Assembly (NCBI GenBank): GCA_964606485.1 | Contig: CAZSGP010000002.1 | Coordinates: 10,766 to 74,765 of the forward strand | Direction of reading: 5' to 3' | DNA length: 64,000 nucleotides | Origin: an uncultured Planctomycetia bacterium | GTDB taxonomy: Bacteria; Omnitrophota; Gorgyraeia; 2-02-FULL-51-18 | Shown here: positions 5,786 through 36,990 of the stretch, piece by piece | Layout of the letters: each line of letters begins with the position of its first letter | Position numbering within the stretch: the first letter of the stretch is position 1 | Translations under genes and position numbers: made by a program | Notes under the pieces: generated by a model | The model's input: only the letters and a program-made list of their open reading frames with translations | Database searches by the model: none | Told to the model about the DNA's origin: nothing

Positions 5786-5811
5786 AAATTTAAATACTCT
5801 CTTATTGTTGC

Positions 5812-5873: not shown

Positions 5874-5903
5874 AAAAAAAATAGTGGGCCTGCTCAACCC
5901 ACT
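5874..5903 (-). terminator. Rho-independent terminator downstream of proS
   Basis: On the minus strand: hairpin AGUGGG-9 nt loop-CCCACU followed by an 8-U tract, about 45 nt after the proS stop. Confidence 0.7.
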
Positions 5904-5950
5904 TTCTCCGTTTAAAACCGTGATTGAATTATGTTGTTAATGTAGCAAAA

Positions 5951-7672: not shown

Positions 7673-7682
7673 AGAATGTGTA

Positions 7683-8812: not shown

Positions 8813-8820
8813 CGCCGTTC

Positions 8821-18908: not shown

Positions 18909-18937
18909 ATATTAACACAATCCCATTACATCGTAAA
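18909..18937 (-). promoter_or_regulatory. Putative sigma70-type promoter for hpf (TTTACG-17-TGtTAATAT extended -10) overlapping the lptB 3' end
   Basis: Hexamers and spacing read on the minus strand. Confidence 0.35.
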
Positions 18938-19648
18938 CTTCTCACCCAGATAGATTTTTCGCGCCTCGCGGCTTGCCAAAAGTTCGTCGCGCGTGCCCGA
19001 GATTAGAATCTTACCTTCGTACATGATATAGGCGCGGTCCGTAATTGCGAGTGTCTCGCGCACATTGTGGTCAGTGAGCAAAATGGCGAGCCCCTTGCGT
19101 TTTAACTCCAAGATAAGGTGCTGGCAATCCGAAACAGCGATTGGATCAATTCCTGAAAAGGGTTCATCTAGAAGTAGGCACAAAGGGTGCGTGACCAGTG
19201 CGCGGGTGATTTCAAGCCTGCGGCGCTCCCCGCCCGATAAGGTGTAAGCGCGTGCTTTTCGTAATTTTGCCATCCCAAGCTCATTGAGCAATTCCTCAAG
19301 TCGCTTCTGTCGCTCCGCCCTTGGTAGATCGAGCGTCTCTAAAATAGCCATAATATTTTCTTCGACGGTTAGCTTTCGAAATATGGAAGGCTCTTGGGAC
19401 AAATACCCTAAACCCAGCTGAGCGCGGCGGTGAATCGGATACTGACTGATGTCGCGGTGATCAAACAAAATTGAGCCGCTGTCCGGTTTCACAATTCCCG
19501 TCACCATATAAAAGGAAGTGGTTTTGCCGGCGCCATTAGGGCCTAAGAGCCCCACGACTTCGCCCGGGTTAATCGTAAGATCGACACCGCTGACGACGGA
19601 CCTGCCGCCATAGGATTTTTTAAGACCTTTAGCTTCCAAAAGGGACAT
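18926..19648 (-). CDS. lptB: LPS export ABC transporter ATP-binding protein LptB (start trimmed to MSLLEAKGLKKSYGG)
   Basis: Walker A GPNGAGKTT, signature LSGGERRRLEI, Walker B LLLDEPFSGID. About 241 aa once the spurious 5' extension to 19867 is removed. Confidence 0.92.
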   Translation of the reverse strand: MSLLEAKGLKKSYGGRSVVSGVDLTINPGEVVGLLGPNGAGKTTSFYMVTGIVKPDSGSILFDHRDISQYPIHRRAQLGLGYLSQEPSIFRKLTVEENIMAILETLDLPRAERQKRLEELLNELGMAKLRKARAYTLSGGERRRLEITRALVTHPLCLLLDEPFSGIDPIAVSDCQHLILELKRKGLAILLTDHNVRETLAITDRAYIMYEGKILISGTRDELLASREARKIYLGEKFTM

Positions 19649-20429
19649 CGAGAGCCTTTGTGCTATTTTTGTGAAAGGAGATTTCGGGATTTCCAACAAG
19701 CTTGATCGATCCGCTCGCAACATCATAAATAGCCTTCTGGGATTTGCTGGTGTCGCCGCCGCGATCAATTTGAACATTTCCCATCGCGATAATTTTAGTG
19801 ATCTTCTTTTCTGCCGAATCAAAAAAAACATCCATGCGGTTCGACTTGAGTATTCCCTTGTCGTCAACCACCGTTACATTTCGGTAAAATATCATTTTAT
19901 TGTCTTTGTAAAAAATCTTCATCGGACCCTTACAAGTCAGGTCTGTGGTGGCGTTGATCTGCATGTGAATATCGCGATTGAGCTGAACATAACTATCCGC
20001 AGGCCTGCCGCTTGCTCCGGTTCCCTCGATGATTGCCGCCCGGTGCACCACATGCACCCGCGCTTCGGTGGTCAAAAGACCTTCTTTTGGATCCCACTTC
20101 ACATGGTCGGTTTTAACCGCTGTGCCGTCCCGCATTTTAAGCGTCACATTTTCTTCCAAGAACACGGTTTGACCGGGGTCAATTTTGGCGGTCTCGCCCT
20201 CTAAATTCCAAAACTTCTTTCCCTGCTCATCAAAACCTGTGAGGTTAAATTTCTGAAGTTCCTGGTCTCGGCTTGACTGCACGAGCGCCTGGCGCTCGGG
20301 GCTTTTTCTTAATTTTTCATTCTCTCTTTTTTCGCGCATCAGCGAAAATAAAGCTAGCGCCATAATCAACACACAAAGAGCTAGAAGCGCTGTCAGCATA
20401 CTCTGCTGTTGGAAAAATTTCTTAATCAC
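19629..20429 (-). CDS. lptC: Membrane-anchored OstA-like LPS transport protein (LptC family; the only LptC/LptA-like gene in the operon)
   Basis: 266 aa; N-terminal TM helix then OstA-like beta-jellyroll. Sits between kdsC and lptB as in canonical kdsD-kdsC-lptC-lptA-lptB operons. Confidence 0.7.
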   Translation of the reverse strand: MIKKFFQQQSMLTALLALCVLIMALALFSLMREKRENEKLRKSPERQALVQSSRDQELQKFNLTGFDEQGKKFWNLEGETAKIDPGQTVFLEENVTLKMRDGTAVKTDHVKWDPKEGLLTTEARVHVVHRAAIIEGTGASGRPADSYVQLNRDIHMQINATTDLTCKGPMKIFYKDNKMIFYRNVTVVDDKGILKSNRMDVFFDSAEKKITKIIAMGNVQIDRGGDTSKSQKAIYDVASGSIKLVGNPEISFHKNSTKALDVPFGS

Positions 20430-20955
20430 GGTAATACCTCTCTGTGGCTTCGTGCCATTTTTTCTGTGTCTTTAAAATGAGCTCTGCCACTTCCCTCACC
20501 GCTCCGCGCCCGCCTTTTTTAGCGGTGATGTAATGCGCAGCGTTTTTAACTTCTTCAACTGCATTTTGAACCGCTGCTGAAAATCCCGAATGCCGCATGG
20601 CCGCCAAATCAATCAGGTCATCTCCCATGAAACAAATTTCTGACAAGTCCACCTTAAACTTACTAGCCGCTTTCTGCAAGGCCTTCAGCTTGTCATCAAC
20701 CTTCTGATAAAGCTTGGTGATTTTAATTTCTTTGGCGCGGCACTCGTTGATGCGAGATTTTTTAGAGGTAATGATAATGACTTTAATGCCCACGCGGGCT
20801 AGCAACGCACACCCAAGGCCATCCTGAGAATCAAAAAACTTTAACTCATCTCCGAAGTTGCCGTACACCATCCGGCCGTCGGTGAGAACTCCGTCGACAT
20901 CGAGCGCCACGAGCTTAATTTTTTGGATTCTATCTTTTAATTCGTCGGACAACAT
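20422..20955 (-). CDS. kdsC: 3-deoxy-D-manno-octulosonate 8-phosphate phosphatase
   Basis: 177 aa HAD-IIIA; LVALDVDGVLTDG and GDDLIDL motifs. Confidence 0.9.
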   Translation of the reverse strand: MLSDELKDRIQKIKLVALDVDGVLTDGRMVYGNFGDELKFFDSQDGLGCALLARVGIKVIIITSKKSRINECRAKEIKITKLYQKVDDKLKALQKAASKFKVDLSEICFMGDDLIDLAAMRHSGFSAAVQNAVEEVKNAAHYITAKKGGRGAVREVAELILKTQKKWHEATERYYRD

Positions 20956-21921
20956 TTAAACGATTCCGGCTTTGAGTAAATCCTGCACATCCAGCAAACC
21001 AACCGGCTTTCCATTTTTGTCCACCACTGGAATTTCGTCGATTTTCTTCGAACGCAAAACTTCCAAGGCTTCAGCGGCCAGACGCTCTTCACCGATGGTG
21101 GTGGGGTTTTTCGTCATAACACTCCCCACTTTTAATTTGAGTACCGCTTCGCCACCCTCCAGCCTTCTTCTCAAGTCTCCGTCGGTGAATATCCCTTTAA
21201 GCTTGCCGTTCGCACCAACCACTGCTGCAGAACCAGCCTTTGCGCGCGTAATACAGATCAAAACTTCTTTGAGTGACACAGACTCTTTCACCACGGGATT
21301 AGAATCCCCCTTACGCATAATATCTTTTACGCGCAAAAAGAGTTTCTTTCCAAGACTTCCGCCGGGGTGATAAAACGCAAAGTCTTTTGGCTTAAACCCC
21401 TTTCGCTCGAGTAGCGCCACGGCAAGCGCATCCCCCATCGCAATCATGGCTGTGGTAGAAGCGGTGGGCGCTAGATTCATGGGACACGCTTCTTTCTTAA
21501 CGCTCACGTCAATCACGCAGTCGCTGTAACGCGCTAAGGGTGATTTGGAATCCCCAGTAAATGCGATGAGCTTTGCGCCAATTTTTTTAATCACAGGTAA
21601 AAATTTTAAAATTTCTTCGGTCTGACCGCTATTGGAGAGAGCCACCACAACATCGTCTTTCATGACGCGGCCCAAATCCCCGTGCGCCGCTTCCGCGGGG
21701 TGTAAAAACAAAGACGGCGTTCCGGTCGACGAGAGAGTTGCTGAAATTTTTTGGGCAATGAATCCGGGCTTACCCATTCCCGTCACCACCACACGACCCT
21801 TGGCTTTTAAAATAATCTGGCAGGCTTGTTCAAAACTTTTACCGATGCGCGGGAGCAGGCTATTTAAAGCCGCCGCTTCAATTCCAATGACTTGCTTAGC
21901 GATCTTAATCGACACGTACAA
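20956..21921 (-). CDS. kdsD: Arabinose-5-phosphate isomerase (SIS + tandem CBS)
   Basis: 321 aa; SIS domain GRVVVTGMGK..., two C-terminal CBS domains. Confidence 0.9.
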   Translation of the reverse strand: MYVSIKIAKQVIGIEAAALNSLLPRIGKSFEQACQIILKAKGRVVVTGMGKPGFIAQKISATLSSTGTPSLFLHPAEAAHGDLGRVMKDDVVVALSNSGQTEEILKFLPVIKKIGAKLIAFTGDSKSPLARYSDCVIDVSVKKEACPMNLAPTASTTAMIAMGDALAVALLERKGFKPKDFAFYHPGGSLGKKLFLRVKDIMRKGDSNPVVKESVSLKEVLICITRAKAGSAAVVGANGKLKGIFTDGDLRRRLEGGEAVLKLKVGSVMTKNPTTIGEERLAAEALEVLRSKKIDEIPVVDKNGKPVGLLDVQDLLKAGIV

Positions 21922-22729
21922 CCTTGCTGAGTTTGAGCAGTCTCTCTAAAAGTTTTTCGAGATCGCTGAGTTTCACCATATTCGGACCATCACTCGGCGC
22001 TTTGTCGGGATTTTCGTGCACTTCCATGAATACTCCATCAGCTCCGGCAACCACACCACACTGGGCCAATGTCGGCACAAACTTTCTTTCACCACCCGAA
22101 CTAGCGCCTCGTCCACCTGGCTGCTGAACGGAGTGCGTGGCATCCATGACCACCGGGTAACCAAAACTTTTCATAATCGGAATAGCGCGAAAGTCGCTCA
22201 CCAGAGTGTTGTAGCCAAAACTGGTGCCGCGTTCAGTCAGAAGAATTTTGCGACTTCCGGCAGATTCAATTTTTTTAACCACATGCTCCATATCCCAAGG
22301 AGCTAAGAACTGTCCTTTTTTAACATTCACAATTTTTCCGGTTTTAGCTGCGGCAACGAGCAGATCGGTCTGGCGACAGAGAAATGCCGGGATCTGCAAC
22401 ACGTCCACCGTTTCTCCTGCGATGCGCGCTTCTTCAGCAGAATGCACGTCGGTTAATAGCGGCAAACCGGTTTCACTTCTCACCGCTTCCAAGATGCTCA
22501 ATCCTTTTTCAATCCCAAGCCCACGAAACGAGGACGAAGAACTGCGATTGGCCTTATCGTAACTTGACTTGTAAATGAGTGGGACATTTAATCGCTTGGT
22601 AATTTTTTGAATGGCCTTGGCGTGCTTGAGCGCACTCGCATGGTTTTCAACGACGCAAGGACCGGCGATTAAAAAAAGGCTCTCGCCTGATCCCATTTGA
22701 ATTTTTCCTAAAGCCACGCGATGGGCCAT
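21905..22729 (-). CDS. kdsA: 2-dehydro-3-deoxyphosphooctonate aldolase (Kdo-8-P synthase)
   Basis: 274 aa; LFLIAGPCVVEN and DAKS family motifs. Confidence 0.92.
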   Translation of the reverse strand: MAHRVALGKIQMGSGESLFLIAGPCVVENHASALKHAKAIQKITKRLNVPLIYKSSYDKANRSSSSSFRGLGIEKGLSILEAVRSETGLPLLTDVHSAEEARIAGETVDVLQIPAFLCRQTDLLVAAAKTGKIVNVKKGQFLAPWDMEHVVKKIESAGSRKILLTERGTSFGYNTLVSDFRAIPIMKSFGYPVVMDATHSVQQPGGRGASSGGERKFVPTLAQCGVVAGADGVFMEVHENPDKAPSDGPNMVKLSDLEKLLERLLKLSKVVRVD

Positions 22730-22732
22730 GGA

Positions 22733-24346
22733 TCAATTAACCTTATTGGCTAATGCGGCTTTGATGAACTCACGAAACAGCGGATGAGCCTGGTCAGGCT
22801 TCGATTTGAATTCCGGATGAAATTGGCAGCCCACAAACCAAGGATGGTCGACGAGTTCAATAATTTCAACTAAACGTCCATTGGGACTTGTCCCTGAAAC
22901 CACGAGACCGTTCGTTTCCATTTTCACTTTGTACTTATTATTAAATTCATACCGGTGGCGGTGACGCTCCTGGATAGAATCTTTTCCGTAAGCCTTTTGA
23001 GCTTTGGTTTGTTTTTTGAGTGAGCACGGATAAGAACCCAAGCGCATCGTGCCACCCAAATCCTGAACCCTCTTCTGCTCCTCTAGGAGGCTGATCACTG
23101 GGAACGGAGTCGTTTTATTAAACTCGGTGGAATTCGCACGGCTCATACCGCAGACATTGCGCGCAAATTCGATCACCGCACATTGCATGCCTAAGCAAAT
23201 TCCAAAATACGGGATTTTATTTTCCCGCACAAACTTGATGGCTTTAATTTTTCCCTCAATGCCGCGGTCTCCAAACCCGCCAGGAACGAGCACGCCGTGT
23301 ACGTCTTTTAAGAATTTTTCAGGCCCATGCGCCATCACTTCTTCGGCGTCAATTTTTTTTACAATCACTTTCGCGTCATTCGAAACGCCGCCGTGCTTGA
23401 GCGCTTCGTAAACGGACTTGTACGCATCCTGAAGCTCGATGTATTTGCCGACGAAACCGATCGTCACTTCCTTGGAGGGGTTTATAACCCGGTCCACCAC
23501 ATTAACTTTCCAATTTTTTAGTTTCGCTTCACCGTCATCACAGTTTAAGCGCAAAAGGCGAATGAGGATGGTGTCGAGCCCCTCCTCTTTGAGCGCTAAA
23601 GGCACTTCATAAATTTCCTGCACGTCGAGCGCCTGAATCACCTGATCGACCTCAACATTGCAAAACAAAGCGATCTTTTGACGCACTTCTTTCGATAACC
23701 GCTTTTCTGTGCGGCACATTAAAATATCGGGCTGAATACCAATCTCACGCATCTCGGCAACACTGTGCTGAGTAGGTTTTGTTTTGATTTCGTCCGCCAC
23801 GCGGATAAATGGAATCAAGGTTAAATGCACGTTGAGCGCATTTTCTTTACCGATGTCCTGACGGAACTGGCGAATGGCTTCCAAAAACGGGAGACTTTCG
23901 ATATCGCCAACGGTGCCACCGATTTCACAGATCACCACATCCACCGATTTATCTTTAGAGACATTTTTGATAGCGGCCTTGATTTCATCCGTGATATGCG
24001 GAACCACCTGCACGGTCGCGCCCAAATAATCTCCGTGGCGCTCCTTGGTGATCACCGAGTGATAAATTTTTCCGGTCGTGATGTTGCTGACTTTCGAAAT
24101 GTCGCTATTCGTGAAGCGTTCGTAGTGTCCCAAGTCGAGATCCGTCTCGGCGCCATCTTCAGTGACATACACTTCGCCGTGCTGGTAAGGACTCATCGTT
24201 CCCGGGTCCACGTTCAGGTAGGGATCGCATTTCATCATAATGACGCGAAGCCCCTTAGACTCTAAAATTTTTCCAATCGAGGCGGAAACAATTCCTTTTC
24301 CTAAGCTTGAAACCACGCCACCCGTAACAAAAATATATTTAGGCAT
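22733..24346 (-). CDS. pyrG: CTP synthase (start trimmed to [18 protein letters not shown])
   Basis: Synthetase domain plus C-terminal class I glutamine amidotransferase (GICLGMQ, HPEF). Confidence 0.95.
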
Positions 24347-25079
24347 TTTCTTCCTTTTGAAATAGTGCACGCGCCAATTCTAAATCCTGAGGAGTGTCCA
24401 CGCCGACGGTCTCAAAAACGGTTTCGATCGCTTTGATCTTGTACCCGTGTTCGATGGCCCTCAATTGTTCCAGACGCTCATTTTTTTCAAGATAAGACGG
24501 CGGTAATTTTTTGAAGGTGAATAAAAAATCCTTGTTGAACGCATAAATCCCGATGTGCTTGTAAAAAAAATGTTCATTGAGTGATGGATTGAGAAGTGTT
24601 GGAATTGGCGAGCGTGAAAAATAAATCGCAAAATTTTTCTCGTTTACGATCGCTTTCACCACATCCGGACTGCGAAATTCTTCGATGGAGTAGCTTTTCT
24701 TCACGACCGTCGCCATGGATACTTCAGGGTCGTCTTGCATGGCTCGCACCAAATCATCGATCACCATCGGGTTGATCAGCGGTTCGTCGCCTTGGATATT
24801 CACAACAATCTTCACATCAATCCCATTCACCACCTCGGTGAGCCGGTCAGTCCCCGTGGTGTGGGACTTAGAGGTAAAAATAGCCTTGCCGCCGAATTTT
24901 TCGACCGCCTTAATAATACGGTCATCATCAGCTGCCACAATTAAATCATCGAGCATCTTCGCTTTTTTAGCGCGCTCGTAAACGTGCTGAATCACCGGTT
25001 TCCCGCACAAATCTTTCAGCACTTTCCCTTCAAAGCGCGTCGATCCAAAACGCGCCGGGATTACTCCAATGGTTTCCAT
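24339..25079 (-). CDS. kdsB: 3-deoxy-manno-octulosonate cytidylyltransferase (CMP-Kdo synthetase)
   Basis: 246 aa; [16 protein letters not shown] and NIQGDEP motifs. Confidence 0.92.
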
Positions 25080-26130: not shown

Positions 26131-26910
26131 CTAAAAATCACTCTTCATCACGCCTTGGACCGGTCCAAAAGGGGTCTTCAGCGTAATCCAAATTGGTTGT
26201 CGCTTGGCGTCGGCGCTAAAATAAACATCGGCCCGGCCGCGACTGGCTAAAATTCCTTTGAGCTTGGTCTTGGGTTCCACCCGAATCACGGCAAACTCGC
26301 CGTGTTTGCGGATTTCCCGAATCTGGGTTTCGTGCACATTGAGCTCCACGTCCCATAATTTTTCATCGGAGGCTACCAGCAAATGAAACTGGTCACCCGC
26401 TTGAACATTTTGCCGACGAAACCAAAAAAAAGCACTGATCAAGTCGTGTGCGTCGGCAGGGATAGAAATTTCTTTTTTAGACCCGTTCGTCACAGACTCA
26501 TAAAACGCTTTTCCAGCTGCTCGATCATAAATCATTTTTTCGTGCGCTTGGTACCGCCCCTCTTGAATATTTTTTTCAAACCGAATGGGTAAAAACGTTT
26601 TAGCATCCAGATAGCTATGAATTTCGTCTCTCACGAAACAAAACTTAGATAAAAATTCATTCGACCCCGCAACGGCAATCACATGAAACGCCTCTACCCC
26701 GTCCATCACTGTTTTTTCTTTAACTTCGAGGGTTCCAAATCCTATAGGAACGCCCATCCAGGAAACATCGAAGATTATTTTCTCGCCGACCGTAAGCGTT
26801 TGAAGAGCAGGCTCAATGACAACGGTCTGGCTTTTTTTCGCAGAAACGGCGTTAGCGGCACATGTTTGCACACAAAGGAAGATCAATATGAGCGCTATTT
26901 TATTTTTCAT
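26131..26910 (-). CDS. Secreted DUF3108-like protein (Sec signal peptide MKNKIALILIFLCVQTCAANA)
   Basis: 259 aa; signal peptide; my recollection of DUF3108 family length and composition; 11-nt overlap with the upstream GT9 gene implies co-transcription. Confidence 0.5.
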   Translation of the reverse strand: MKNKIALILIFLCVQTCAANAVSAKKSQTVVIEPALQTLTVGEKIIFDVSWMGVPIGFGTLEVKEKTVMDGVEAFHVIAVAGSNEFLSKFCFVRDEIHSYLDAKTFLPIRFEKNIQEGRYQAHEKMIYDRAAGKAFYESVTNGSKKEISIPADAHDLISAFFWFRRQNVQAGDQFHLLVASDEKLWDVELNVHETQIREIRKHGEFAVIRVEPKTKLKGILASRGRADVYFSADAKRQPIWITLKTPFGPVQGVMKSDF

Positions 26911-28897
26911 GCTTGTCTGAGCCCAGCATCTCTTTTAATTTTACAAATACTTGATCCACGCCAACCTGCTTCAAACACTCAAACTGAATCGTACAGGCAT
27001 GCGCTAAACACACGACGCATCCGGGATTTTTCTGAATCGTCTCATGTCCGCTTCCGAGTGCCTTCCAGCGAGCCTGACTTAAGCCCGCTTGATTGCGGCC
27101 AAAGATGGTCAGCGTAGGCGTACCGACAGCTGCCGCCACATGCACCGGCCCCGAATCGTTGGACACCAAGAGCCGACTTTCTTTTAAAATTGCTGAAAGT
27201 TCAGGGAGAGACAATTTTCCGGTCAAATCCTGAACAAAATCGCCCAAACTCTCTTTTAAGTGTAGGCCGATTTGAATCTCCTCTGAACCTCCCACCAAAA
27301 TAACAGGCCCCACATTTTCTCGTTTCATTTTTTGACACAGTTCTAAAAATTTTTCCTGCGGCCAGCGTTTAGAGGGACAGCTAGCGCCGGCGTGAATTGC
27401 AATTGGCGAATGCAGTAGCTTAAATTTCTGAATTATATTTTCTCGATCCGCCTGATAAACAATCAAGCGGGGATTCTCTTTAGACTCCTCGACTCCAAAT
27501 GCCCGGACAATTTCAAGTGTGTAGTCAGACTCGTGCTTCTGACCTTCGCTGCGCACATCCTTTACTTTCTGGGTCAAAAGCCATGGCAAATGAGAATCAA
27601 ATCCAATCCGGTATGGAATGCCCGCTAAAAATGGGACTAGATGCGCGCGCGTGCTTGGATGCAGCAGAAACGCCACATCAAAATTGCGGTTTGCTATTTC
27701 CTTTAGAATATTCCGCGCACCCTTCCACCCTGAGTGCCGGCCACCTTTCTCGTAAAAATATGGCAAAACATTATCCACATCGGGACAACGTTCAAAAATC
27801 TCACGAACCGCGGCACGACAGAGAACCGAAATCGAAGCATTCGGAAAACGCCGGCGGATCGCGGAGAGGGCCGGAAAAGACAACACCGCGTCCCCCATGC
27901 GGTCAAGCCGCACCACCAGCACTTTGAAATTCTTTTTTAGACTGGATTCATTTAAAATTTCATCGGCACGTCGGTAAACAAGATCGGGACTCAACTCCTT
28001 CAGACACTCTTGCTTAAACCGGCACTGCGCCTTCTCACAAGGCGAACAAAAAACCCCCGAACGAAGCGCTGCGCTCAAGACCCCCTTAGGTCCGTATCGG
28101 CGCGGATCGGTCGGACCAAAAATCCCGATCACCGGAATTTCAAGCGCGTCGGCAATATGGAGCGGCGCGCTATCATTCGTGATCACGAGATTCGACGCTT
28201 GGATTAGACCCGCTAATTCTTCAAACTGAGTTTGCCCACAAAAATTATGCACCGACGCGCGCATCAAATTCTTCACCTTTAACGCATCGTCAATATCCGT
28301 CTTATCCCCGATCAATCCGATCTTTACTCCCTTTTCAAACGCCAGGCGGTCGAGCAGAGCCGCAAAATGCTCGGCGGGCCATTTTTTTGTATCACTCTTA
28401 GATCCAACGGCTGCCAAAACCAAACCCGTGACACTCGACTGATTTAAAAATGCGTCGTAACTCGCATCTAATTTGGCCTTGCGCGAAAGCCAAGCTGCGG
28501 AACCCGCAATCGATGATTCTACAGAACAAATCCCTCTGAGGGCTGACAAGTGCCGCAAAGAACGAAGACTGCGTTTCGAGCAATATGAAAAATACGAATT
28601 CCGCTTCCGCGCTCCACCCAGCAAACCAAACAAGGAGTGGCGAAGGTCAATAATCAGATCGTAACGTCGTTTTCTGATTTCAAAAAGTATGTTTATTTTT
28701 TCAGAAAGCGGCGCACGCTTGTTAAAAATTTCAAGGCGATGAATCCGGGAATCATTTTCAAAAACGCATTTTGCGGAACTCCCAACAATCACATCAATTT
28801 GGGCATTAGGAAAAGATTCGTAAAGGGCGCGAAAAACCGGGAGCGTCAAGACCACGTCTCCCAGATTGGAAAGTGTGATAACTAAAATTTTTTTCAT
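26900..28897 (-). CDS. Tandem double glycosyltransferase family 9 protein (two heptosyltransferase-like domains fused, boundary near nt 27934)
   Basis: 665 aa; MKKILVITLSNLGDVVLTLPV... at the N-terminus and a second ...KNFKVLVVRLDRMGDAVLSFPAL... GT9 start at about aa 322; both halves end with GT9 C-terminal ...ND(S)(G/A)P(L/V)H(I/V)A(D/A)A motifs. Confidence 0.8.
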   Translation of the reverse strand: MKKILVITLSNLGDVVLTLPVFRALYESFPNAQIDVIVGSSAKCVFENDSRIHRLEIFNKRAPLSEKINILFEIRKRRYDLIIDLRHSLFGLLGGARKRNSYFSYCSKRSLRSLRHLSALRGICSVESSIAGSAAWLSRKAKLDASYDAFLNQSSVTGLVLAAVGSKSDTKKWPAEHFAALLDRLAFEKGVKIGLIGDKTDIDDALKVKNLMRASVHNFCGQTQFEELAGLIQASNLVITNDSAPLHIADALEIPVIGIFGPTDPRRYGPKGVLSAALRSGVFCSPCEKAQCRFKQECLKELSPDLVYRRADEILNESSLKKNFKVLVVRLDRMGDAVLSFPALSAIRRRFPNASISVLCRAAVREIFERCPDVDNVLPYFYEKGGRHSGWKGARNILKEIANRNFDVAFLLHPSTRAHLVPFLAGIPYRIGFDSHLPWLLTQKVKDVRSEGQKHESDYTLEIVRAFGVEESKENPRLIVYQADRENIIQKFKLLHSPIAIHAGASCPSKRWPQEKFLELCQKMKRENVGPVILVGGSEEIQIGLHLKESLGDFVQDLTGKLSLPELSAILKESRLLVSNDSGPVHVAAAVGTPTLTIFGRNQAGLSQARWKALGSGHETIQKNPGCVVCLAHACTIQFECLKQVGVDQVFVKLKEMLGSDKHEK

Positions 28898-29883
28898 GCG
28901 CGGAGCAGCTCGGAAGCAGCCTGCAACGCTTCGTCAGGCGTGATCCACTCCATACAGACTCTATAGTTACAGTCTCTAAAATAGCACGGCACCTGACATC
29001 CGGTTTCTTTTTTAAGAATCCGCACCGGCCCCAAAGAAAGAGGTCCTGTTAAATCCGGATGCGTTGGACCAAAAATTCCGAGAATCGGCGTTTTTTGGCT
29101 GGCGGCTAAATGAATAGGTCCTGAATCATTGGACAATAGCAGCCGCGCTTCTTTTAAAAGAAGAGCCAGCTCATCCAAAGAAGTTTTCCCCGTCATCACC
29201 ACAAGCCTGGGAGACGAGCAAAGAGATTTAATTTGATCGGACAGCGGCTTCTCAGCAAAAGTTCCGCAGAGAATGATTTTGGTGTCCGGAAACTTTTCAC
29301 TAAGGCCGTCTATCCACTGCGCAAAATTTTCCGCAGGCCAGCGCTTGAGAAGCCAATTCCCTCCCGGGTGAAGAGCTACGTAACGCTCTCCCGCCAAAGG
29401 ATTTCGCGCTGCTTTTTGCGGAAAAAAATCAGGCGTGCGTCCATCCGGAGCAATGCCCATCGCCGTGAGCAGATTTAAAAAATAATCCGTCTTATGAAGC
29501 GGGTGCTGAGGCAATGGAAAAACATGTGTCAAAAAACGCTTCTCAGGCTGTTTCGCGTAACCAAGCCGCACCGGGACACCGGCCATTTTTATAAAAAAAA
29601 TACGGGTGCGCGAGCGGTGAAAAAAAATGGCCGCGTCAAAATGCCTAGAGCGAATCTTAAAAAATATTTTTAAGGCTTTTGCATAAGAAAAAAGTGAGCG
29701 TCGATCGTCAATCAGAATAAGCTCATTCAAATAGGGATTGTTTTTAAGGAGTGCTTCGCAGCGCCGGGGCAGCAAACACGAAATAAAACTGTCGGGGTAT
29801 TTTTTTCGAATGGCCCGGATGGCTGGCGTCGAAAAAAGGACATCTCCCACCCAGTTCACATTCACAATTAAAATCTTTTTCAT
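28894..29883 (-). CDS. Glycosyltransferase family 9 (LPS heptosyltransferase-like); start trimmed to MKKILIVNVNWVGDVL
   Basis: GT9 N-terminal motif and C-terminal NDSGPIHLAA motif. Confidence 0.8.
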   Translation of the reverse strand: MKKILIVNVNWVGDVLFSTPAIRAIRKKYPDSFISCLLPRRCEALLKNNPYLNELILIDDRRSLFSYAKALKIFFKIRSRHFDAAIFFHRSRTRIFFIKMAGVPVRLGYAKQPEKRFLTHVFPLPQHPLHKTDYFLNLLTAMGIAPDGRTPDFFPQKAARNPLAGERYVALHPGGNWLLKRWPAENFAQWIDGLSEKFPDTKIILCGTFAEKPLSDQIKSLCSSPRLVVMTGKTSLDELALLLKEARLLLSNDSGPIHLAASQKTPILGIFGPTHPDLTGPLSLGPVRILKKETGCQVPCYFRDCNYRVCMEWITPDEALQAASELLRA

Positions 29884-29891
29884 GGAAACCT

Positions 29892-30716
29892 TTAAATGAT
29901 CGGAATCCGTTTTTTTCCTAAATGGTACAAGCCGCTGACCTTCAGCCAAAAGCTAAACAAACTTCCTCTGCTCTCACTGATTTTCACGCGGCGAAGCGCC
30001 ATAACATCATACCGAGTTCCTCCCCACATCTCTTTACGCTTAGAGGCGTAATTCGTCGTCACAGCGCACTGATACCCAGCTTGCTCCGACAGCTGCCTCA
30101 CCGCCTTGGTAACGCCCCCCGCGGGATAGCTCAGAAGAAAAATAGGATGCCCAAGAATCTTTTCAAGCCGGTTGCGCGACTCTTGGAGCTCCGCGATCGC
30201 GTTTTCAATGGACACTCTAGGTAAAAATGCGTGGTTATGCGTGTGGCTGCCGATCTGGATACCCGCGCCTTCTAAAATTTTCAAATCTTCTTCAGACAGC
30301 CACCCCTCTTTACCAACATTCCCGGTGATCATAAAAATAGTGGCCTTAAAACGCATTTTCTTTAAAACCGGAAAGGCATTTTCAAAATTATCAAGCGTGC
30401 CGTCGTCGAACGTGATGACCACGGTGTTGTAAGGAATCCTTTTTTGCGCTCTCAAAAGATCCGCTAAATCCAGCAGCGAAATCACATTGTAATGATGAAT
30501 GCGCAAAAACTCCATTTGCCGCTCGAAAGTTTGAAGGCTGACATCGGTGCTGGAGTTTAAATGCTGACCCGCTCCAACCCTGTGATACATCAAAATAGGA
30601 ACCTCATAATTTGCGCGGCAAAATACAAAACAAGCGACAAGCAGCGCTGGGATAATTACAAAGCGTTTTTTAAAACGAAAATTCATTAATGCGCTCCGCT
30701 GAAACTTCGCGCTCAT
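29892..30716 (-). CDS. Polysaccharide deacetylase (CE4/NodB family) with N-terminal membrane anchor
   Basis: 274 aa; TM helix then ILMYHRV, TFDDG, HTHNH motifs of CE4 enzymes. Confidence 0.8.
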   Translation of the reverse strand: MSAKFQRSALMNFRFKKRFVIIPALLVACFVFCRANYEVPILMYHRVGAGQHLNSSTDVSLQTFERQMEFLRIHHYNVISLLDLADLLRAQKRIPYNTVVITFDDGTLDNFENAFPVLKKMRFKATIFMITGNVGKEGWLSEEDLKILEGAGIQIGSHTHNHAFLPRVSIENAIAELQESRNRLEKILGHPIFLLSYPAGGVTKAVRQLSEQAGYQCAVTTNYASKRKEMWGGTRYDVMALRRVKISESRGSLFSFWLKVSGLYHLGKKRIPII

Positions 30717-32823
30717 CGAGTCGATTTTTTTGGCGGGCGTCCTTTAAAAAAGCCAACGTACAATCCAGGACGTCCTGTGGAAGTATTTTTTTCATACAGA
30801 TATGTCCAATCGGGCAGCTGCGCAAATAACAAGGGCTGCAGGAAATCTCTTTCCAAAACACCTGGCAAACGCTGGGAGCTACGAGATGGCGCTTGGGATC
30901 GGTTGGACCAAACAGAGCAATCAGCGGAACATTGGCCCCGGAGGCAATGTGCATCGGAGCTGAATCTGAACTAATGAACACCTGGCAACGACGGATGAGC
31001 GCCGCGAGCTCCGTGATAGATGTTTTTCCAACCGCATTGATCGGCTTGTTGCGTGTCAGCTGAAAAAGAGGCTCAATGGTTTTAGCGTCTTCCGGAGCCC
31101 CCGTGATCACAACCCGGATATTGCGCTTGGCAAGTTCATCGCAAAGCCTGGCAAAATATTCGAGTGGCCACTGCTTAGTGGGCCAACGAAGTGAGGATGC
31201 CGGATTAATTCCCACCAAAGTTTGACTAGAGGCCACCCACTGCGATTCTAAAAATTTGCTCACGCGAACATTCTCTTCTTGCGATGTCCAAAGCTCTAAT
31301 TTTTTTTCACTAGATTCCACGTCCACTAGTCTTAAAACTCGAAACTGGTGGTCTAGCGGGGCGGCGGAAGACGCCTCTTGAGAAGTGGTTTTGTTGAGTA
31401 AAAATGACCATTTTCGGTTGGCGTGTCCTGCGCGAACTCGAGCGCCGCTTAAAAAGGCTAGCAAATGACTCGTGCGGTTATTTTGCAAATCAACACAGAC
31501 ATCAAAATCTTCTTTTGCCAAAATTCGCGCCGTTTTCAAAATGCGGCTAATGCGCTCTTTGCCCTGTGCTTCCTCGTAAACAATCACATCGTTGACGTAA
31601 GGACAATTACGGATCACCTGGCGGGACTTGCGCCCCACCAAAACAGAAATCCAGGCATCGGGATATCGCTGCCGGAGTGCGCGCAGCGACGGAATGCTTA
31701 AAATAACATCCCCCAGCGCACTAAGCTTAATCACAAGAATTTTCTTTTGATTCATCGCCTCGTCATAAACTTTTAATGTTTTTTCAAACATGCCCTTGGC
31801 ATCAAACAACGTTTCAACTTTTTTTCTGAGCGCCAAAACAAGTGACGCGGCAAATTCAGGTTCTTTAACAAGGCGGATCACAGCCTCAGACAAAAGACGC
31901 GGATCATCCGGCGGAACCAGTAGCCCGTCTTTCTCATTTTCAATAATATCAACCAGGCCCCCGATTTTAGACGCTACCACTGGAACTCCGCAGGCCCCCG
32001 CCTCAATGGCCACGCGGCCAAACGCCTCTTCACCCACCGACGGCACCACCAGCACCGTCATAGACGCTAGTGCTTCGGAAATGTCATACCGGGTCCCTAA
32101 AAATTCAACGTTGTGCGTTAGGCCCAGACGCCGCGTCAGCATCAAAAGCTCTTCTTTATACTGCGGCTTTGGCGAGTCGCCGATAATCCGTATTTTTACG
32201 TTCGGGAACACCCGAACTACGCGAGCCATTGCTTTTAAAAAAACGGGATGGCCTTTAATGGGCGTTAGTCTTCCAATCACACCAATCACAATCGGTGAAC
32301 CGGCAAGAGGCGTGGGTTCGGGCCTTAATTTGAATTCATTCAAGTTCACGCCGCGATGAATGAGGCGAATGCGTTGGTGTGGCACCCCAAAGTCATCGCG
32401 CATGCGCCGGCCAATGATGTGACTTGCGACAATCACGCGCTTGCCCCAGCCCATGATGCGGCTCATCAAGTGCTTGCTATAAAAACCATGACAGGTCGTT
32501 ACAAACGGCACATGTGTTTTACGGCTTGCTAAAAAAGCAATCCAGGCAGGCACGCGACTGCGCGCGTGAATAATTTGAATTTCTTCCTTACGAATGATAT
32601 TTGCTAAAGATCGAGCGGAGCTAAAAATGCTAAATGGGGATTTTTTGTGCACCGGAAGCTTGTAATGCGTCACCCCTGCTGATTCGAGATCAGCCACAAG
32701 CGGACCACCTGCGGATACCACCACCGAATGATGGCCGGCATTTTTAAGGTATTTCGCGAAGTCAACCGTGCCGCGCTCCACTCCGCCCGATTGAAGTTCC
32801 GGCAACACCTGAAGAACTCTCAT
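30670..32823 (-). CDS. Bifunctional GT4 (RfaG-like) - GT9 (heptosyltransferase-like) fusion glycosyltransferase (boundary near nt 31749)
   Basis: 717 aa; N-terminal GT-B GT4 domain (VVASKIGGLVDIIENEKDGLLVPP, the E-X7-E region) followed at about aa 359 by KKILVIKLSALGDVILSIPSLRAL..., a GT9 domain with C-terminal SSDSAPMHIASG. Confidence 0.8.
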   Translation of the reverse strand: MRVLQVLPELQSGGVERGTVDFAKYLKNAGHHSVVVSAGGPLVADLESAGVTHYKLPVHKKSPFSIFSSARSLANIIRKEEIQIIHARSRVPAWIAFLASRKTHVPFVTTCHGFYSKHLMSRIMGWGKRVIVASHIIGRRMRDDFGVPHQRIRLIHRGVNLNEFKLRPEPTPLAGSPIVIGVIGRLTPIKGHPVFLKAMARVVRVFPNVKIRIIGDSPKPQYKEELLMLTRRLGLTHNVEFLGTRYDISEALASMTVLVVPSVGEEAFGRVAIEAGACGVPVVASKIGGLVDIIENEKDGLLVPPDDPRLLSEAVIRLVKEPEFAASLVLALRKKVETLFDAKGMFEKTLKVYDEAMNQKKILVIKLSALGDVILSIPSLRALRQRYPDAWISVLVGRKSRQVIRNCPYVNDVIVYEEAQGKERISRILKTARILAKEDFDVCVDLQNNRTSHLLAFLSGARVRAGHANRKWSFLLNKTTSQEASSAAPLDHQFRVLRLVDVESSEKKLELWTSQEENVRVSKFLESQWVASSQTLVGINPASSLRWPTKQWPLEYFARLCDELAKRNIRVVITGAPEDAKTIEPLFQLTRNKPINAVGKTSITELAALIRRCQVFISSDSAPMHIASGANVPLIALFGPTDPKRHLVAPSVCQVFWKEISCSPCYLRSCPIGHICMKKILPQDVLDCTLAFLKDARQKNRLDEREVSAERINEFSF

Positions 32824-34808
32824 CCCAAAATCCTTTGCATGGCTCTAGACAAAACCTGCTCATCTGAGCGCTCAGCTTCCGAACTTTTTTGAGGCTTAAA
32901 ATTTAAGAATGTTTGTGTCATATTTTCAGAGCCAATCATTTCAATTTGTTTTTTTTGCTTCATAAAATCTAAAAATCTTTTGTACTTCGGCTTAAGCTCA
33001 TCTGCCTTAAAGGGTGTGAATACCATCACCCGTTTACCCGAAGCGATGGCTTCTGACACCATCGACATTGACTCCGCGGTCACCACCACACTTTCACACA
33101 AACCTAAAATTGCATTCACAACACCGGGTCTGTTTTTTTCGTTTGCGATCACAAGCAGCGGACAAATTCCTCGATCTGAAAATTTCTCTTTTAAAATTTC
33201 GTCTGCCCAAGGTGGCGTCCGGCGCGACGTTGTAACAAAAATTTTTAAATTCTGCCCTTTGGCCAAACGCAGTAAATCATCGGTATTTTTTTCAAAAATT
33301 TCTTTTGAAAATTGGACGTCCTCGGTGTCGCCCCCGATTAAAACCCCAAGCGTTCTACAACCCTCTTCAAGCCCAAGCTCGTCTTTTAACTTACGCGCCT
33401 CATCAAGCGCTTTCTTAGGATTTGCTAAAGACAGTACACGCTCTGTTATAAACACATTGGCGGAAGGTGTTATTTTATCATGCAGCGGAGCAATCACAGC
33501 GTCAAAACGCCCTGCTCCAAAGGGCGGCTTCATCACGATAGCGGCCTTAGCCTTTAAATCCCTCTTAAGCGCAAGGCTTACTCCCGCAATCGAGCTTCCG
33601 CAGGAAATGAAAATATCCGCCGGAGCGGCCCACAAATCAGCGAGCGTCTTTTCGTCCAAACAAAGATTCATCCAAGACTGTTCAAACCAGGGATTTCCAG
33701 CGCCTAGAAAATAGACAGTCTGAAAAAGTTTACGCAAGATCGGATTCTTAAATTTCACCTCGACCACTTTGACTTGAGTTTCCTCGTCGGGCAACCCCTG
33801 CCCGCGCCGGTACTGCGCGAGCGCTTCCGACACGGCTAAGGATTGATTGAGATGTCCCGCCTTCCCATCGCTCAAAACAACAACGAACCGGGTTGTTGTG
33901 GATTTCCAGCGCCGATGACCCCACATCCACATGGTCGGGTCTTTGCGGATCTTCGCCTCCAAGAGAGTTGCAAACTGCTGAAGCACCGCTTTTTCAGTTT
34001 CCTCTTCACTAAGACCTTTTGGAAAATCGAGCGCGGCTTCCATTTCAATGCGGTGATTCATTTGATTTTCTCTGAAAATAAATCCTGGAAAAATCGGCGC
34101 CCCTGCTTTGAGTGCAAATGCGACAACGCCGCGCGGCGTGGACGAGGCTCTTCCGAACAAACGAACAAAAACACCGTTGCGGCCCCCGTCTTGATCACTT
34201 AAAATACCAACCGCCTTTCCTTCTCTGAGCACACGGATGAGCTGGCGAATCATCATTCCCTTGTAAATAATCTCACTACCCTGCGAAGCTCTTAAAGAGT
34301 TCAGGAATTCATCCGACCGAGGGTGTTTTTGCGCGCGCGCCAGAGCCGCCAGCGGATGCCCTACGAGACAAGCGGTGGCGTTTAATAATTCCCAATTTCC
34401 AAAGTGACCCGTTAAAAAAATAACCCCCTTGTGGGCGTCTAAAGAGGGCTGAACTTTTTCAAGGTTCACGATCCTCACGTGTTTTTCGATGTAATCACGG
34501 GTTAAATCCGGAAAACGCAAAAGCTCGACCATGGAGACAGCGAGATTCACCATGGATTGTCGGGAGATAGTGTTAATTTCGGAGCGGGATTTTTCGCCTT
34601 TAAAACAAAATCTTAAGTTTTTATAGGCAATGTGTCGACGGGTGGTTAAAACATAGAATAGATGGCCGATGCTTCGTCCAATCCTGCAAGAAACCGGAAG
34701 CGGTAAAACACGGACAAGGAACCGGAGGGCTTTGGAAGCCCTAAGAATTAAGGCATCTTCTAATAAAATCTTCTTCATCGCCCAATTCAAACTCAATTTG
34801 AAGTACAA
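32820..34808 (-). CDS. Lipid A secondary (lauroyl/myristoyl) acyltransferase LpxL-family domain fused to a C-terminal ELM1/DUF1022-like domain (boundary near nt 33896)
   Basis: 662 aa; N-terminal LABLAT fold with HFGNWE catalytic H-X4-E motif; C-terminal about 355 aa begins TRFVVVLSDGKAGHLNQSLAVSEAL, resembling the ELM1-family N-terminus as I recall it (tentative). Confidence 0.7.
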   Translation of the reverse strand: MYFKLSLNWAMKKILLEDALILRASKALRFLVRVLPLPVSCRIGRSIGHLFYVLTTRRHIAYKNLRFCFKGEKSRSEINTISRQSMVNLAVSMVELLRFPDLTRDYIEKHVRIVNLEKVQPSLDAHKGVIFLTGHFGNWELLNATACLVGHPLAALARAQKHPRSDEFLNSLRASQGSEIIYKGMMIRQLIRVLREGKAVGILSDQDGGRNGVFVRLFGRASSTPRGVVAFALKAGAPIFPGFIFRENQMNHRIEMEAALDFPKGLSEEETEKAVLQQFATLLEAKIRKDPTMWMWGHRRWKSTTTRFVVVLSDGKAGHLNQSLAVSEALAQYRRGQGLPDEETQVKVVEVKFKNPILRKLFQTVYFLGAGNPWFEQSWMNLCLDEKTLADLWAAPADIFISCGSSIAGVSLALKRDLKAKAAIVMKPPFGAGRFDAVIAPLHDKITPSANVFITERVLSLANPKKALDEARKLKDELGLEEGCRTLGVLIGGDTEDVQFSKEIFEKNTDDLLRLAKGQNLKIFVTTSRRTPPWADEILKEKFSDRGICPLLVIANEKNRPGVVNAILGLCESVVVTAESMSMVSEAIASGKRVMVFTPFKADELKPKYKRFLDFMKQKKQIEMIGSENMTQTFLNFKPQKSSEAERSDEQVLSRAMQRILG

Positions 34809-35721
34809 AAAAATTGACTCCCAAGAAATCCTCCGCAGAAGCTCCTTTTAATACCGGCTCAAGCCTGTAAAAATCTTTTTCGGTGGTGACGACGTCCCGC
34901 ACCCCAAGATCCTTGCAGCGCCGCGCAAATGCCATCACGTCCTGCCGCGTGTAAGGGTGATGATCGTCAAAGCGCCCCGCCAAAATAATTTCGGAACCCA
35001 AGAGTTCAAGCGTCTTCTCAAAACTATGAGGATCTCCGATTCCAGACAACGCCCCTACTTTTCGATTCTTTAAAATCTCAAGCTCCACAGATTTTTTCTT
35101 ACGAATATCAATCAGGTCAACCGGCTTATGAATCGCCTCAAAAATGGCGGCTCCCGGCTTAATGGTTAAGAGTTTCTGCCGGATCAAATGAAGATTTTTT
35201 GAACCAATATTACTTTTGGTCAAAACAAAAACTTGAGCGCGGTTTAAATTTTCAAGTGGCTCTCTTAAGTTTCCTTCCGGAATTAGTCCCCCGGGCCCAA
35301 ACGGACAGGTCGCGTTGATATTCACCACGTCCAAATCTCTATGGAGACGGATATGCTGGAATCCATCATCCAAAATAACAATTTCGGCCCCATGCTTTTC
35401 GACGGCCTCGGTTGCCGTTTTAATTCGGTCCCGGCCGACGAGCACAGGGATGCCGGGTAAGCGACTTTTAAGCTCAGCTACTTCGTCTTTTCCATAACCA
35501 CGAGTAAGAACGGCTGTTTTCTTTCCTTGAATGCTCATGTAACGCGCAAGCGCGATCACAAGCGGTGTCTTACCGGTTCCGCCCCAGGTAATGTTTCCAA
35601 CGCTGATTACTCGAGCGCCCACTTTACGAATTCGGTCGGGGTGAATTTTATAAGTCGCCTGTGTGAAGCGAACAACGGCTCCATAGATTCGAGACAAAAA
35701 CTGCAAAAACCATTTTTTCAT
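34741..35721 (-). CDS. lpxK: Tetraacyldisaccharide 4'-kinase
   Basis: 326 aa; GNITWGGTGKTP P-loop. Confidence 0.9.
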   Translation of the reverse strand: MKKWFLQFLSRIYGAVVRFTQATYKIHPDRIRKVGARVISVGNITWGGTGKTPLVIALARYMSIQGKKTAVLTRGYGKDEVAELKSRLPGIPVLVGRDRIKTATEAVEKHGAEIVILDDGFQHIRLHRDLDVVNINATCPFGPGGLIPEGNLREPLENLNRAQVFVLTKSNIGSKNLHLIRQKLLTIKPGAAIFEAIHKPVDLIDIRKKKSVELEILKNRKVGALSGIGDPHSFEKTLELLGSEIILAGRFDDHHPYTRQDVMAFARRCKDLGVRDVVTTEKDFYRLEPVLKGASAEDFLGVNFFVLQIEFELGDEEDFIRRCLNS

Positions 35722-35733: not shown

Positions 35734-36990
35734 TTATGCGTTCAAAAAATCAATAGATCTTTGTGTAGCGCCTTGATGCAGCTTGATAATCTTTTTGGCC
35801 TTCTGACCTAACCCCACTCTAAAATTAACGTCCGCAATCTGCTTGTCGAGCGCCGCGCTCAACATCTCTAAATCTTTAACTTCGAACCCTGCTCCTTCTT
35901 TCAAAAACAATTCGGTCATTTGGCGAAAATTTTGCGTAAATGGGCCAAATAAAATCGGCTTCTCAAAATACGCAGGCTCCACCAGATTGTGTCCTCCGGT
36001 CGGAACCAAGCTTCCTCCAACAAAAACAGAGTCCGCCGCATTATAAAAATCTGCCAAAGCCCCCATTTTGTCGAGCACGACAATTCCCGCGCTCTGCCCG
36101 CTCTTCCATTGCGACAATCGAACCAGTTCTAAATTTCGGTCCGCTGCCAGCTTCTCAATCTTCGAAAGCCTGTCTAGGTGACGAGGGGCTAAAAGCAACG
36201 CAAAGAAAGAGTATTTTGCCTTGAGGTGGCAGTAAGCGTCAAAGAGAATCTCCTCTTCCCCCGCATGCGTACTGCCGGCCACCCAAAGAAATGTGTTGCT
36301 CCCGAGCGCTTTTCTAAAGAAATCTGCTTCCCCCGCGAACACTCCCTTCGGGAACCAGTCATATTTTAGATTTCCAGAGACATGAACAGTGTCTGGCGCA
36401 GCGCCCAAACTGATAAAACGTTCTTTCGCCTGTTCGTCCTGGGCAAGAATTCCCTTGAGACGTCGCAAGACCGGCGCTAAGAATAGTTGGACACGGCGAT
36501 ATTTTGGAAACGCGCGGTCTGAAATGCGTCCATTCACAATCCATGCAGGAATTTTTCGGTCGGACAACTCAAAAATGAGATTCGGCCAAATCTCGGTTTC
36601 GAATAGAATCACGCGCTCGGGCCGAACAGCATTCAAAAAACGCTTCACCGCAAAAAATCCGTCGATCGGACAGTATAAGACCGTATCATCGTCCGAGCGA
36701 TTTTTGAGAACCGTTTCCCTTCCGGTTGCCGTCGTGGTGGTGATTAAAAAATGTTTATCTGGCCAATTTTCTTTGAGTGCTTTTAAAAAAACCATGGCCT
36801 GGGCCGCCTCACCCACCGAAACCGCGTGAATCCACACCACTGATTTTTCGCGTAGTTTCTGCTGGATTTGAATCGGTACAAATCCAAACCGCTCGCGTAG
36901 CCCGCCTTTAAATTTCCCCTTCGCAATAAAAGTTGGGAGATAAATTAAAGAAAAAATAAAAAAGCCGACGTTATAAATAAATCTAAGCAT
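35734..36990 (-). CDS. waaA: 3-deoxy-D-manno-octulosonic acid transferase (Kdo transferase)
   Basis: 418 aa; N-terminal TM then WIHAVSVGE motif; GT30. Confidence 0.9.
   Translation of the reverse strand: MLRFIYNVGFFIFSLIYLPTFIAKGKFKGGLRERFGFVPIQIQQKLREKSVVWIHAVSVGEAAQAMVFLKALKENWPDKHFLITTTTATGRETVLKNRSDDDTVLYCPIDGFFAVKRFLNAVRPERVILFETEIWPNLIFELSDRKIPAWIVNGRISDRAFPKYRRVQLFLAPVLRRLKGILAQDEQAKERFISLGAAPDTVHVSGNLKYDWFPKGVFAGEADFFRKALGSNTFLWVAGSTHAGEEEILFDAYCHLKAKYSFFALLLAPRHLDRLSKIEKLAADRNLELVRLSQWKSGQSAGIVVLDKMGALADFYNAADSVFVGGSLVPTGGHNLVEPAYFEKPILFGPFTQNFRQMTELFLKEGAGFEVKDLEMLSAALDKQIADVNFRVGLGQKAKKIIKLHQGATQRSIDFLNA

Follow-up and report, generated by a model that had tools for sequence, protein, structure and literature searches.

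Lipid IVA is made by LpxK, and 3-deoxy-D-manno-oct-2-ulosonic acid (Kdo) is added by WaaA; Kdo2-lipid IVA is the substrate of Escherichia coli LpxL. The secondary acyltransferases LpxL and LpxM (E. coli LpxL; Acinetobacter baumannii LpxM, PDB 5KN7) and mycobacterial PatA (5F2Z) belong to the LABLAT family PF03279 and have an H-x4-E dyad and a fold in common. A second family, PF06258, is named after Arabidopsis ELM1, a mitochondrial fission factor that is described as an adaptor for DRP3A (PMC10936431). Deletion of the "ELM1-like" A. baumannii gene A1S_2903 truncates the lipooligosaccharide (LOS) to Kdo2-lipid A (VanOtterloo et al., mBio 2024, PMC10936431), and the purified protein, KdoT (GtrOC1), moves KdoIII from CMP-Kdo onto Kdo2-lipid IVA (J Biol Chem, Dec 2025, PMC12856342). 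Here we analyse a 64,000-nucleotide stretch of contig CAZSGP010000002.1 (hereinafter the window), from an uncultured bacterium assigned to Omnitrophota, in which a single gene joins an LpxL-type acyltransferase domain (N-half) to an ELM1/KdoT-family domain (C-half).

KdoT alone is catalytically sufficient in vitro, prefers a tetra-acylated acceptor, and is inactive on lipid IVA without Kdo (PMC12856342). Its activity needs R180 of the conserved SRRT motif and is kept in the single mutants D8A, H13A, H109A, and D110A, and a Rickettsia homologue partially complements an A. baumannii kdoT mutant (PMC12856342). A structural likeness between KdoT and WaaA has been reported, and an Acinetobacter deacetylase encoded beside kdoT helps place glucosamine (GlcN) on KdoIII (PMC10936431). 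Five Acinetobacter outer-core proteins, one of them GtrOC1, are listed under PF06258, with GtrOC14, GtrOC19, and GtrOC22 among the paralogues.

The N-half of the fusion matches PF03279 (Lip_A_acyltrans; residues 27–302 of a 662-amino-acid open reading frame (ORF), E 1.8e-51, 175.5 bits versus a cut-off of 22.3), in agreement with an earlier reading of the bare sequence (the original prediction), which had proposed an LpxL/LpxM/LpxP-type enzyme with an H-X4-E motif. Foldseek aligns the N-half with PatA (5f2z_A, E 1.3e-12, TMt 0.86) and LpxM (5kn7, E 7.2e-12), and the sequence matches are to the same proteins (PatA, E 1e-10; LpxM, E 1.9e-9). Compared with LpxL, LpxM, and PatA, the fusion carries a whole glycosyltransferase at its C-terminus, has no detected N-terminal transmembrane helix, and scores below the NCBIfam equivalog cut-offs. 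Because it is below every one of these cut-offs, we designate the N-half only as LpxL-type, with no specific LpxL, LpxM, or LpxP step.

The C-half matches PF06258 (Mito_fiss_Elm1; residues 317–626 of the same ORF, E 1e-47, 163.2 bits versus a cut-off of 27). Modelled alone, it adopts a GT-B fold with high confidence (predicted local distance difference test (pLDDT) 95.6, predicted TM-score (pTM) 0.91), and the ELM1/DUF1022, GT-B-like assignment of the original prediction is thus borne out. Foldseek relates the C-half to many GT-B enzymes with probability 1.0. The best TM is only ~0.5, indicating that the C-half has no close solved relative, and a sequence search of the C-half for PDB entries found none. 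Neither PF02684 (LpxB) nor PF01075 (GT9) matches the C-half at E up to 0.01 in Pfam, so an assignment to LpxB, GT19, or GT9 is ruled out. Over 60 orthologues, the invariant residues of the C-half include D304, G308-H309, Q312, S392, G394, H433-D434, S518-R-R-T521, N549, and S570/M573/E576. The PF06258 family as a whole comprises ~2,489 clusters at 50% identity (E <= 1e-3), and some Omnitrophota fusions are named "ELM1/GtrOC1 family putative glycosyltransferase" by NCBI.

KdoT peptides (MHIVYVSDGKAGHRSQALG, AVIPEHDGIPA, and ILTTSRRTPAE) were obtained by translating published primers, and the full 295-amino-acid KdoT was taken from an Acinetobacter metagenome contig that matches these primers. 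The recovered protein belongs to PF06258 (E 9.7e-60). The C-half aligns with residues 3–243 of the 295 residues of KdoT with 29% identity (E 8e-17). Specifically, SDGKAGH and TTSRRTP are identical in the two proteins, the H-D pair and S-x-S-M-x-x-E are common to both, and all invariant columns are kept. The H-D pair is present in the fusions and in KdoT, and is missing from the two Acinetobacter outer-core paralogues examined and from Poribacteria. As a sequence motif, it favours the KdoT type over the outer-core paralogues.

KdoT and the C-half belong to the same family, have the same GT-B fold, and are both encoded in a lipopolysaccharide (LPS)/LOS core locus near a homologous deacetylase and a GT4 gene. 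In contrast, KdoT is free-standing and encoded in the ilvE-aspS outer-core locus, whereas the window domain forms the C-terminal part of a fusion whose gene directly follows waaA-lpxK. The Acinetobacter contig (L005:8256-11995) has the order kdoT, polysaccharide deacetylase, GT4, second ELM1 paralogue; the same three kinds of gene (ELM1, GT4, and deacetylase) recur in the window operon, in another order. The N-lobe of the C-half is 20–30 residues longer than that of KdoT. The longer form is common to most non-proteobacterial relatives, and the shorter spacing is found in KdoT and alphaproteobacterial proteins. Because unfused proteins of Natroniella, Synergistota, and Phycisphaerales have the same spacing as the fusion, we rejected a fusion-specific N-lobe insertion as the domain interface. 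WaaA (KdtA, GT30), a GT-B enzyme that uses CMP-Kdo on lipid A precursors, is a probable functional analogue, but it belongs to another family (PF04413) and has its own gene in the window, and KdoT is unable to place a first Kdo on lipid IVA. Arabidopsis ELM1 is in the same Pfam family as the C-half, but it is described as a eukaryotic adaptor, with no enzymatic role given in the sources consulted, whereas the bacterial family members are encoded in LPS loci and include one proven glycosyltransferase.

The two halves are joined without a flexible linker in the alignment of 60 orthologues. The junction has the consensus W-L-W-x-H-R-R-W-K-S-T-P-D-R, followed by the first strand of the glycosyltransferase, and contains no insertion or deletion in any of these orthologues, down to 36% identity. 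Consistent with this, the full-length AlphaFold2 model is a single body (pLDDT 91.1, pTM 0.86), with pLDDT of 85–86 across the junction. The gene probably encodes two enzymes in a single rigid polypeptide, which is conserved throughout Candidatus Omnitrophota.

The minus-strand ORF at window positions 32820..34808 has no internal stop and encodes 662 amino acids from a TTG; the HFGNWE, TRFVVVLSDGKAGHLNQSLAVSEAL, and TRFVVVLSDGKAGH strings quoted in the original prediction are all present in it. The true start is probably the ATG at 34778 (MKKILLE...), which gives 652 amino acids, rather than the TTG at 34808, 10 codons further upstream, because P0001, the database protein, and the consensus sequence of the 60 orthologues both open with MKKILLE. 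lpxK ends 38 nt inside the fusion gene, and there is a 4-nt overlap between the stop of the fusion gene and the ATG of the gene that follows. These overlapping reading frames are consistent with translational coupling. Two plus-strand ORFs (32980..33714 and 33843..34202) have no homology or domain support in the searches made, and are probably antisense shadows.

The fusion is not peculiar to the window. A homologue search of 5.8 billion proteins returned 500 matches, of which 120 were listed, and 119 of these 120 carry both domains in one protein of ~650 amino acids (36–52% identity). The original prediction had allowed for an LpxB, GT19, or GT9 C-half and for two genes split by a missed stop. 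Neither was found, and the uninterrupted ORF, together with the homologues that carry both domains in one polypeptide, rules out the latter. The named matches among those listed are almost all from Candidatus Omnitrophica/Omnitrophota, with one labelled Candidatus Eisenbacteria. Among the top 150 cluster representatives at 50% identity, 113 are LpxL::ELM1, 4 are LpxK::ELM1, and 33 are ELM1-only. We also searched one genome for each of 185,579 species with a pattern derived from a three-sequence alignment, which yielded 546 relatives, and annotated the best 80. Omnitrophota-type loci account for 45 of these 80 and comprise 40 LpxL::ELM1 fusions, 2 LpxK::ELM1 fusions, and 3 unfused forms (two cut by contig ends and one degenerate paralogue); a GT4 domain is encoded directly downstream in 36 of the 45. 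Metagenome-assembled genomes (MAGs) labelled "uncultured Planctomycetia" or "Planctomycetales" (L010, L012, L017, L026, L032, L038, L074, and L084) contain the full Omnitrophota-type operon and the fusion, and these labels are probably loose. One Omnitrophota MAG (L034:5911-7080) encodes an ELM1 paralogue that is unfused and has degraded motifs, HRHSN replacing P-x-H-D and SLRT replacing SRRT, with no LPS genes in the flanks. This paralogue may have lost activity.

The LpxK::ELM1 fusions, four to six sequences that include L018 (CP070837.1), L039, P0125, P0238, and P0240, tie the ELM1 domain to lipid A enzymes a second time. Each is encoded by one uninterrupted ORF (L018:4915-7068; L039:5005-7071), with Pfam matches to LpxK at residues 35–350 and to ELM1 at residues 371–695, and CP070837.1, the source of L018, is a complete Omnitrophota chromosome. 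Their ELM1 clade and operon position are those of the window fusion, but the 4'-kinase takes the N-terminal place, and no LpxL half is present in the locus. The LpxK::ELM1 proteins occupy two separate places in a neighbour-joining tree, which suggests that the LpxL half was lost independently.

Outside Omnitrophota, ELM1 is unfused in all 35 loci from other phyla among the best 80 relatives. The original prediction had proposed a survey for ELM1-like genes beside lpxL, lpxK, or waaA; waaA, kdsA, kdsB, or lpxK lies within 6 kb of the unfused ELM1 gene in 18 of these 35 loci, which belong to Synergistota, Nitrospirae, Natroniella, Phycisphaerales, and Rickettsiales. The orders include kdsA-kdsB-ELM1-GT4 and kdsB-kdsA-waaA-ELM1-GT4 in Synergistaceae, waaA-lpxK-ELM1-GT4 in a Nitrospirae MAG, kdsA-waaA-kdsB-ELM1 in Phycisphaerales, and ELM1-waaA in Rickettsiales. 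GT4 is the next detected gene in 8 to ~15 of the 35 loci, depending on the criterion, and nearly all loci surveyed retain the H-D, SRRT, and S-x-S-M motifs. The closest unfused relative found outside Omnitrophota is from Natroniella sulfidigena, a cultured diderm Firmicute, and its cluster (L048, NZ_JALKBY010000003.1, 3766-9999) contains waaA, a Kdo/WaaP-family kinase gene, ELM1, GT4, and two more such kinase genes. A HEPN/nucleotidyltransferase pair lies just upstream of this cluster.

The window operon has the order topA, xerC, waaA, lpxK, fusion, GT4::GT9, polysaccharide deacetylase, GT9, GT9::GT9, DUF3108, PfkB kinase, kdsB, pyrG, kdsA, kdsD, kdsC, lptC/A, lptB (Table 1). The same gene order surrounds orthologues at 38–44% identity and is found in ~40 Omnitrophota genome loci; the GT4::GT9 fusion is likewise conserved across Omnitrophota loci. 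The original prediction had placed the fusion gene immediately upstream of lpxK and waaA. All three genes are on the minus strand, and the fusion gene lies downstream of the other two in the direction of transcription. Neither lpxA, lpxB, lpxC, lpxD, nor a second lpxL was found within the 64-kb window.

Table 1. Features of the fusion gene and of its operon in the window
Feature	Position	Strand	Basis or remark
Fusion gene, 652 amino acids plus stop	32820..34778	-	ATG start; database protein P0001 100% identical, 652 amino acids
N-half, residues 1-293, LpxL-type (LABLAT, PF03279) secondary acyltransferase domain	33900..34778	-	Pfam, Foldseek, sequence
HFGNWE, H125-x4-E130 catalytic dyad	34389..34406	-	H, G, W, E invariant in 60 orthologues
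DQDGG motif, acyltransferase half	34182..34196	-	D195, Q196, D197, G199 invariant in 60 orthologues
Domain junction HRRWKSTTTRFVVV	33876..33917	-	Fixed length, near-invariant in 60 orthologues
C-half, residues 296-652, ELM1/GtrOC1/KdoT-family (PF06258) GT-B domain	32823..33893	-	Pfam, KdoT alignment, model
SDGKAGH loop	33852..33872	-	Same as KdoT residues 7-13 (D8, H13)
PLHDK, H433-D434 pair, equivalent to KdoT H109-D110	33474..33488	-	Invariant in fusions
TTSRRTP (SRRT motif), residues 516-522; R520 equivalent to KdoT R180	33213..33233	-	S, R, R, T invariant in 60 orthologues
ESMSMVSEA, C-terminal Rossmann lobe	33048..33074	-	S, S, M, E invariant, in KdoT as well
waaA (Kdo transferase, GT30), two genes upstream	35734..36990	-	349 bits on NF004388
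lpxK (lipid A 4'-kinase), immediately upstream of fusion	34741..35721	-	Profile match
GT4::GT9 fusion, 717 amino acids, immediately downstream, 4-nt ATGA overlap	30670..32823	-	Profile match
Polysaccharide deacetylase	29892..30716	-	32% identity, E 4e-36 to deacetylase beside Acinetobacter kdoT
GT9 (351 amino acids) and double GT9 (665 amino acids, 26900-28897), heptosyltransferase family	26900..29949	-	Pfam
kdsB, pyrG, kdsA, kdsD, kdsC, full CMP-Kdo supply pathway plus CTP synthase	20422..25079	-	Profile matches
LptC/LptA-like fusion and lptB	18926..20429	-	Profile matches

The GT4 domain is 21% identical to the GT4 of the Acinetobacter outer-core locus, a generic likeness. Short N-terminal, EX7E, and C-terminal resemblances, together with this generic match, provide a lead that the ELM1-GT4 pair may correspond to KdoT-GnaT. 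pyrG (CTP synthase; 22733-24370, minus strand) lies between kdsB and kdsA, follows kdsB in L001 too, and is possibly a local source of CTP for CMP-Kdo synthesis. The DUF3108 gene (26131-26910, minus strand), between the GT9 genes and the PfkB kinase gene, is also found in L001 and L003, and the LptC plus LptA/LptD_N protein (19629-20429, minus strand) has 266 amino acids. Topoisomerase I (37879-40137, minus strand, 752 amino acids) carries an N-terminal ThiS/MoaD-type ubiquitin-fold domain (PF02597, residues 5–67, E 1.7e-11) that ends in FVGGG directly before the Toprim domain; this domain is present in the L001 orthologue and absent from that of L003 (664 amino acids). The remainder of the window contains housekeeping genes. 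All ~60 credible genes of the window (1-64000) lie on the minus strand, the ends of many of them overlap, and every 2-kb bin has a negative GC skew.

The architecture, its conservation, the folds, the retention of motifs, and the genomic context are all observed. By analogy with the described enzymes, we consider it reasonably probable that the fusion is bifunctional, with both an acylating and a glycosylating activity on Kdo-lipid IVA. Specifically, the N-half would add a secondary acyl chain with the H125/E130 dyad, while the C-half, a predicted inverting GT-B enzyme, would add an inner-core sugar to the Kdo region of the same lipid. By analogy with A. baumannii KdoT, this sugar would most probably be an extra Kdo, with CMP-Kdo probably the donor, and R520 of SRRT, the equivalent of R180, would position the donor. 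Joining LpxL and ELM1 makes biochemical sense because Kdo2-lipid IVA, the preferred acceptor of KdoT, is also the substrate of E. coli LpxL. Both catalytic activities are predicted, as are the donor sugar, the order of the two reactions, and a hand-over of substrate between the sites; more speculatively, the rigid junction would let both sites handle one lipid without release.

Several findings weigh against this proposal. The best NCBIfam match of the N-half, NF006270, reaches 163 bits versus a cut-off of 248, and all 17 acyltransferase matches are below cut-off. No transmembrane helix is evident in the fusion, with no 19-residue hydrophobic window above 1.65 and none at the N-terminus; the fusion partner as a transmembrane anchor is unsupported on the same grounds. 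The identity to KdoT is only 29%, and the second ELM1 paralogue of the Acinetobacter contig, an outer-core paralogue without the H-D pair, scores equally against the C-half (E 9e-17). The neighbour-joining tree is star-like and does not group the C-half with KdoT, and SRRT is found in all paralogues and is therefore no marker of Kdo specificity. The equal score, the absence of orthology in the tree, and the family-wide SRRT, together with the several PF06258 paralogues in Acinetobacter outer-core loci (GtrOC14, 19, and 22), would also suit a protein of the same architecture whose ELM1 half moves a non-Kdo sugar (e.g. hexose, hexosamine, uronic acid, or heptose) to the inner core or lipid A. 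We regard such a donor as unlikely, since the window domain and KdoT have in common the H-D pair that the two Acinetobacter paralogues lack, standalone relatives directly follow kdsA-kdsB or waaA in many loci of Synergistota and other groups, and the window operon holds the whole CMP-Kdo pathway plus pyrG. A further difficulty is that neighbouring genes fuse often (GT4::GT9, GT9::GT9, LptC::LptA, and LpxK::ELM1), which weakens the Rosetta-stone argument, and the fusion may reflect compaction, not channelling. Two independent enzymes would then have been joined as a by-product of operon compaction, with neither kinetic coupling nor hand-over of substrate. The gene overlaps throughout the operon, the joining of ELM1 to LpxK instead in some Omnitrophota, and the absence of fused ELM1 from the 35 loci of other phyla agree with this explanation, but the fixed-length, near-invariant junction and the confident single-body model speak against it, and we judge it somewhat unlikely. 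It concerns coupling only, and is compatible with the activities proposed for both halves.

It is very improbable that the ELM1 half is a non-catalytic scaffold or adaptor, leaving the LpxL half as the only enzyme. Plant ELM1 is indeed described as an adaptor for dynamin-related proteins, and KdoT retains activity in each of the four single mutants, D8A, H13A, H109A, and D110A; but KdoT by itself is catalytically sufficient in vitro, and the 60 orthologues show no variation at ~20 positions of the C-half, among them SRRT with its counterpart of R180, with most of these positions kept in KdoT as well. We give hardly any credence to the C-half as a replacement of WaaA or of the lipid A disaccharide synthase LpxB. 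In favour of this idea, the C-half is of the GT-B type and encoded within a lipid A operon, the 64-kb window has no lpxB, and some Synergistota loci have kdsA-kdsB-ELM1 without waaA in the flank. Against this stand the lack of a PF02684/LpxB match, the good waaA two genes upstream, and the inactivity of KdoT on lipid IVA without Kdo.

The original prediction was right in substance, in both domain calls and in the single gene, and wrong in the position of the gene and in treating ELM1 as an orphan family with no established bacterial activity, a view outdated since 2024–2025, as KdoT is a proven transferase (PMC12856342). The fusion thus extends known biology and opens no orphan family. Literature searches found no paper describing an LpxL::ELM1 fusion. 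As far as the searchable literature shows, the covalent LpxL::KdoT-like enzyme across Omnitrophota, the LpxK::ELM1 alternative, and the linkage of ELM1 with waaA, kds, and lpxK across phyla are new.

A bolder and more doubtful idea is that KdoT-type ELM1 is not peculiar to Acinetobacter and Rickettsia, and would be an ancient WaaA-independent, Kdo-adding inner-core module across Omnitrophota, Synergistota, Nitrospirota, Halanaerobiales, and Phycisphaerae. In Omnitrophota it would be rigidly joined to LpxL, or sometimes LpxK, as a two-headed enzyme that acylates and glycosylates one Kdo-lipid IVA without release, and it might be the source of the second Kdo should the local WaaA be monofunctional.

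For annotation, "mitochondrial fission ELM1 family protein" and plain "lauroyltransferase" should be dropped for these proteins. That ELM1 was fused independently to LpxL and to LpxK is genetic evidence for a late lipid A intermediate as the natural substrate of the family, and the rigid junction provides a natural system for testing the coupling of lipid A acylation and core glycosylation. The N. sulfidigena cluster of waaA, Kdo kinase, ELM1, and GT4 is a possible experimental entry point. WaaA-independent Kdo addition is so far represented only by A. baumannii, plus the partial complementation by the Rickettsia gene. If the C-half is of the KdoT type, the WaaA-independent addition of Kdo or another inner-core sugar would be widespread in poorly studied diderm phyla.

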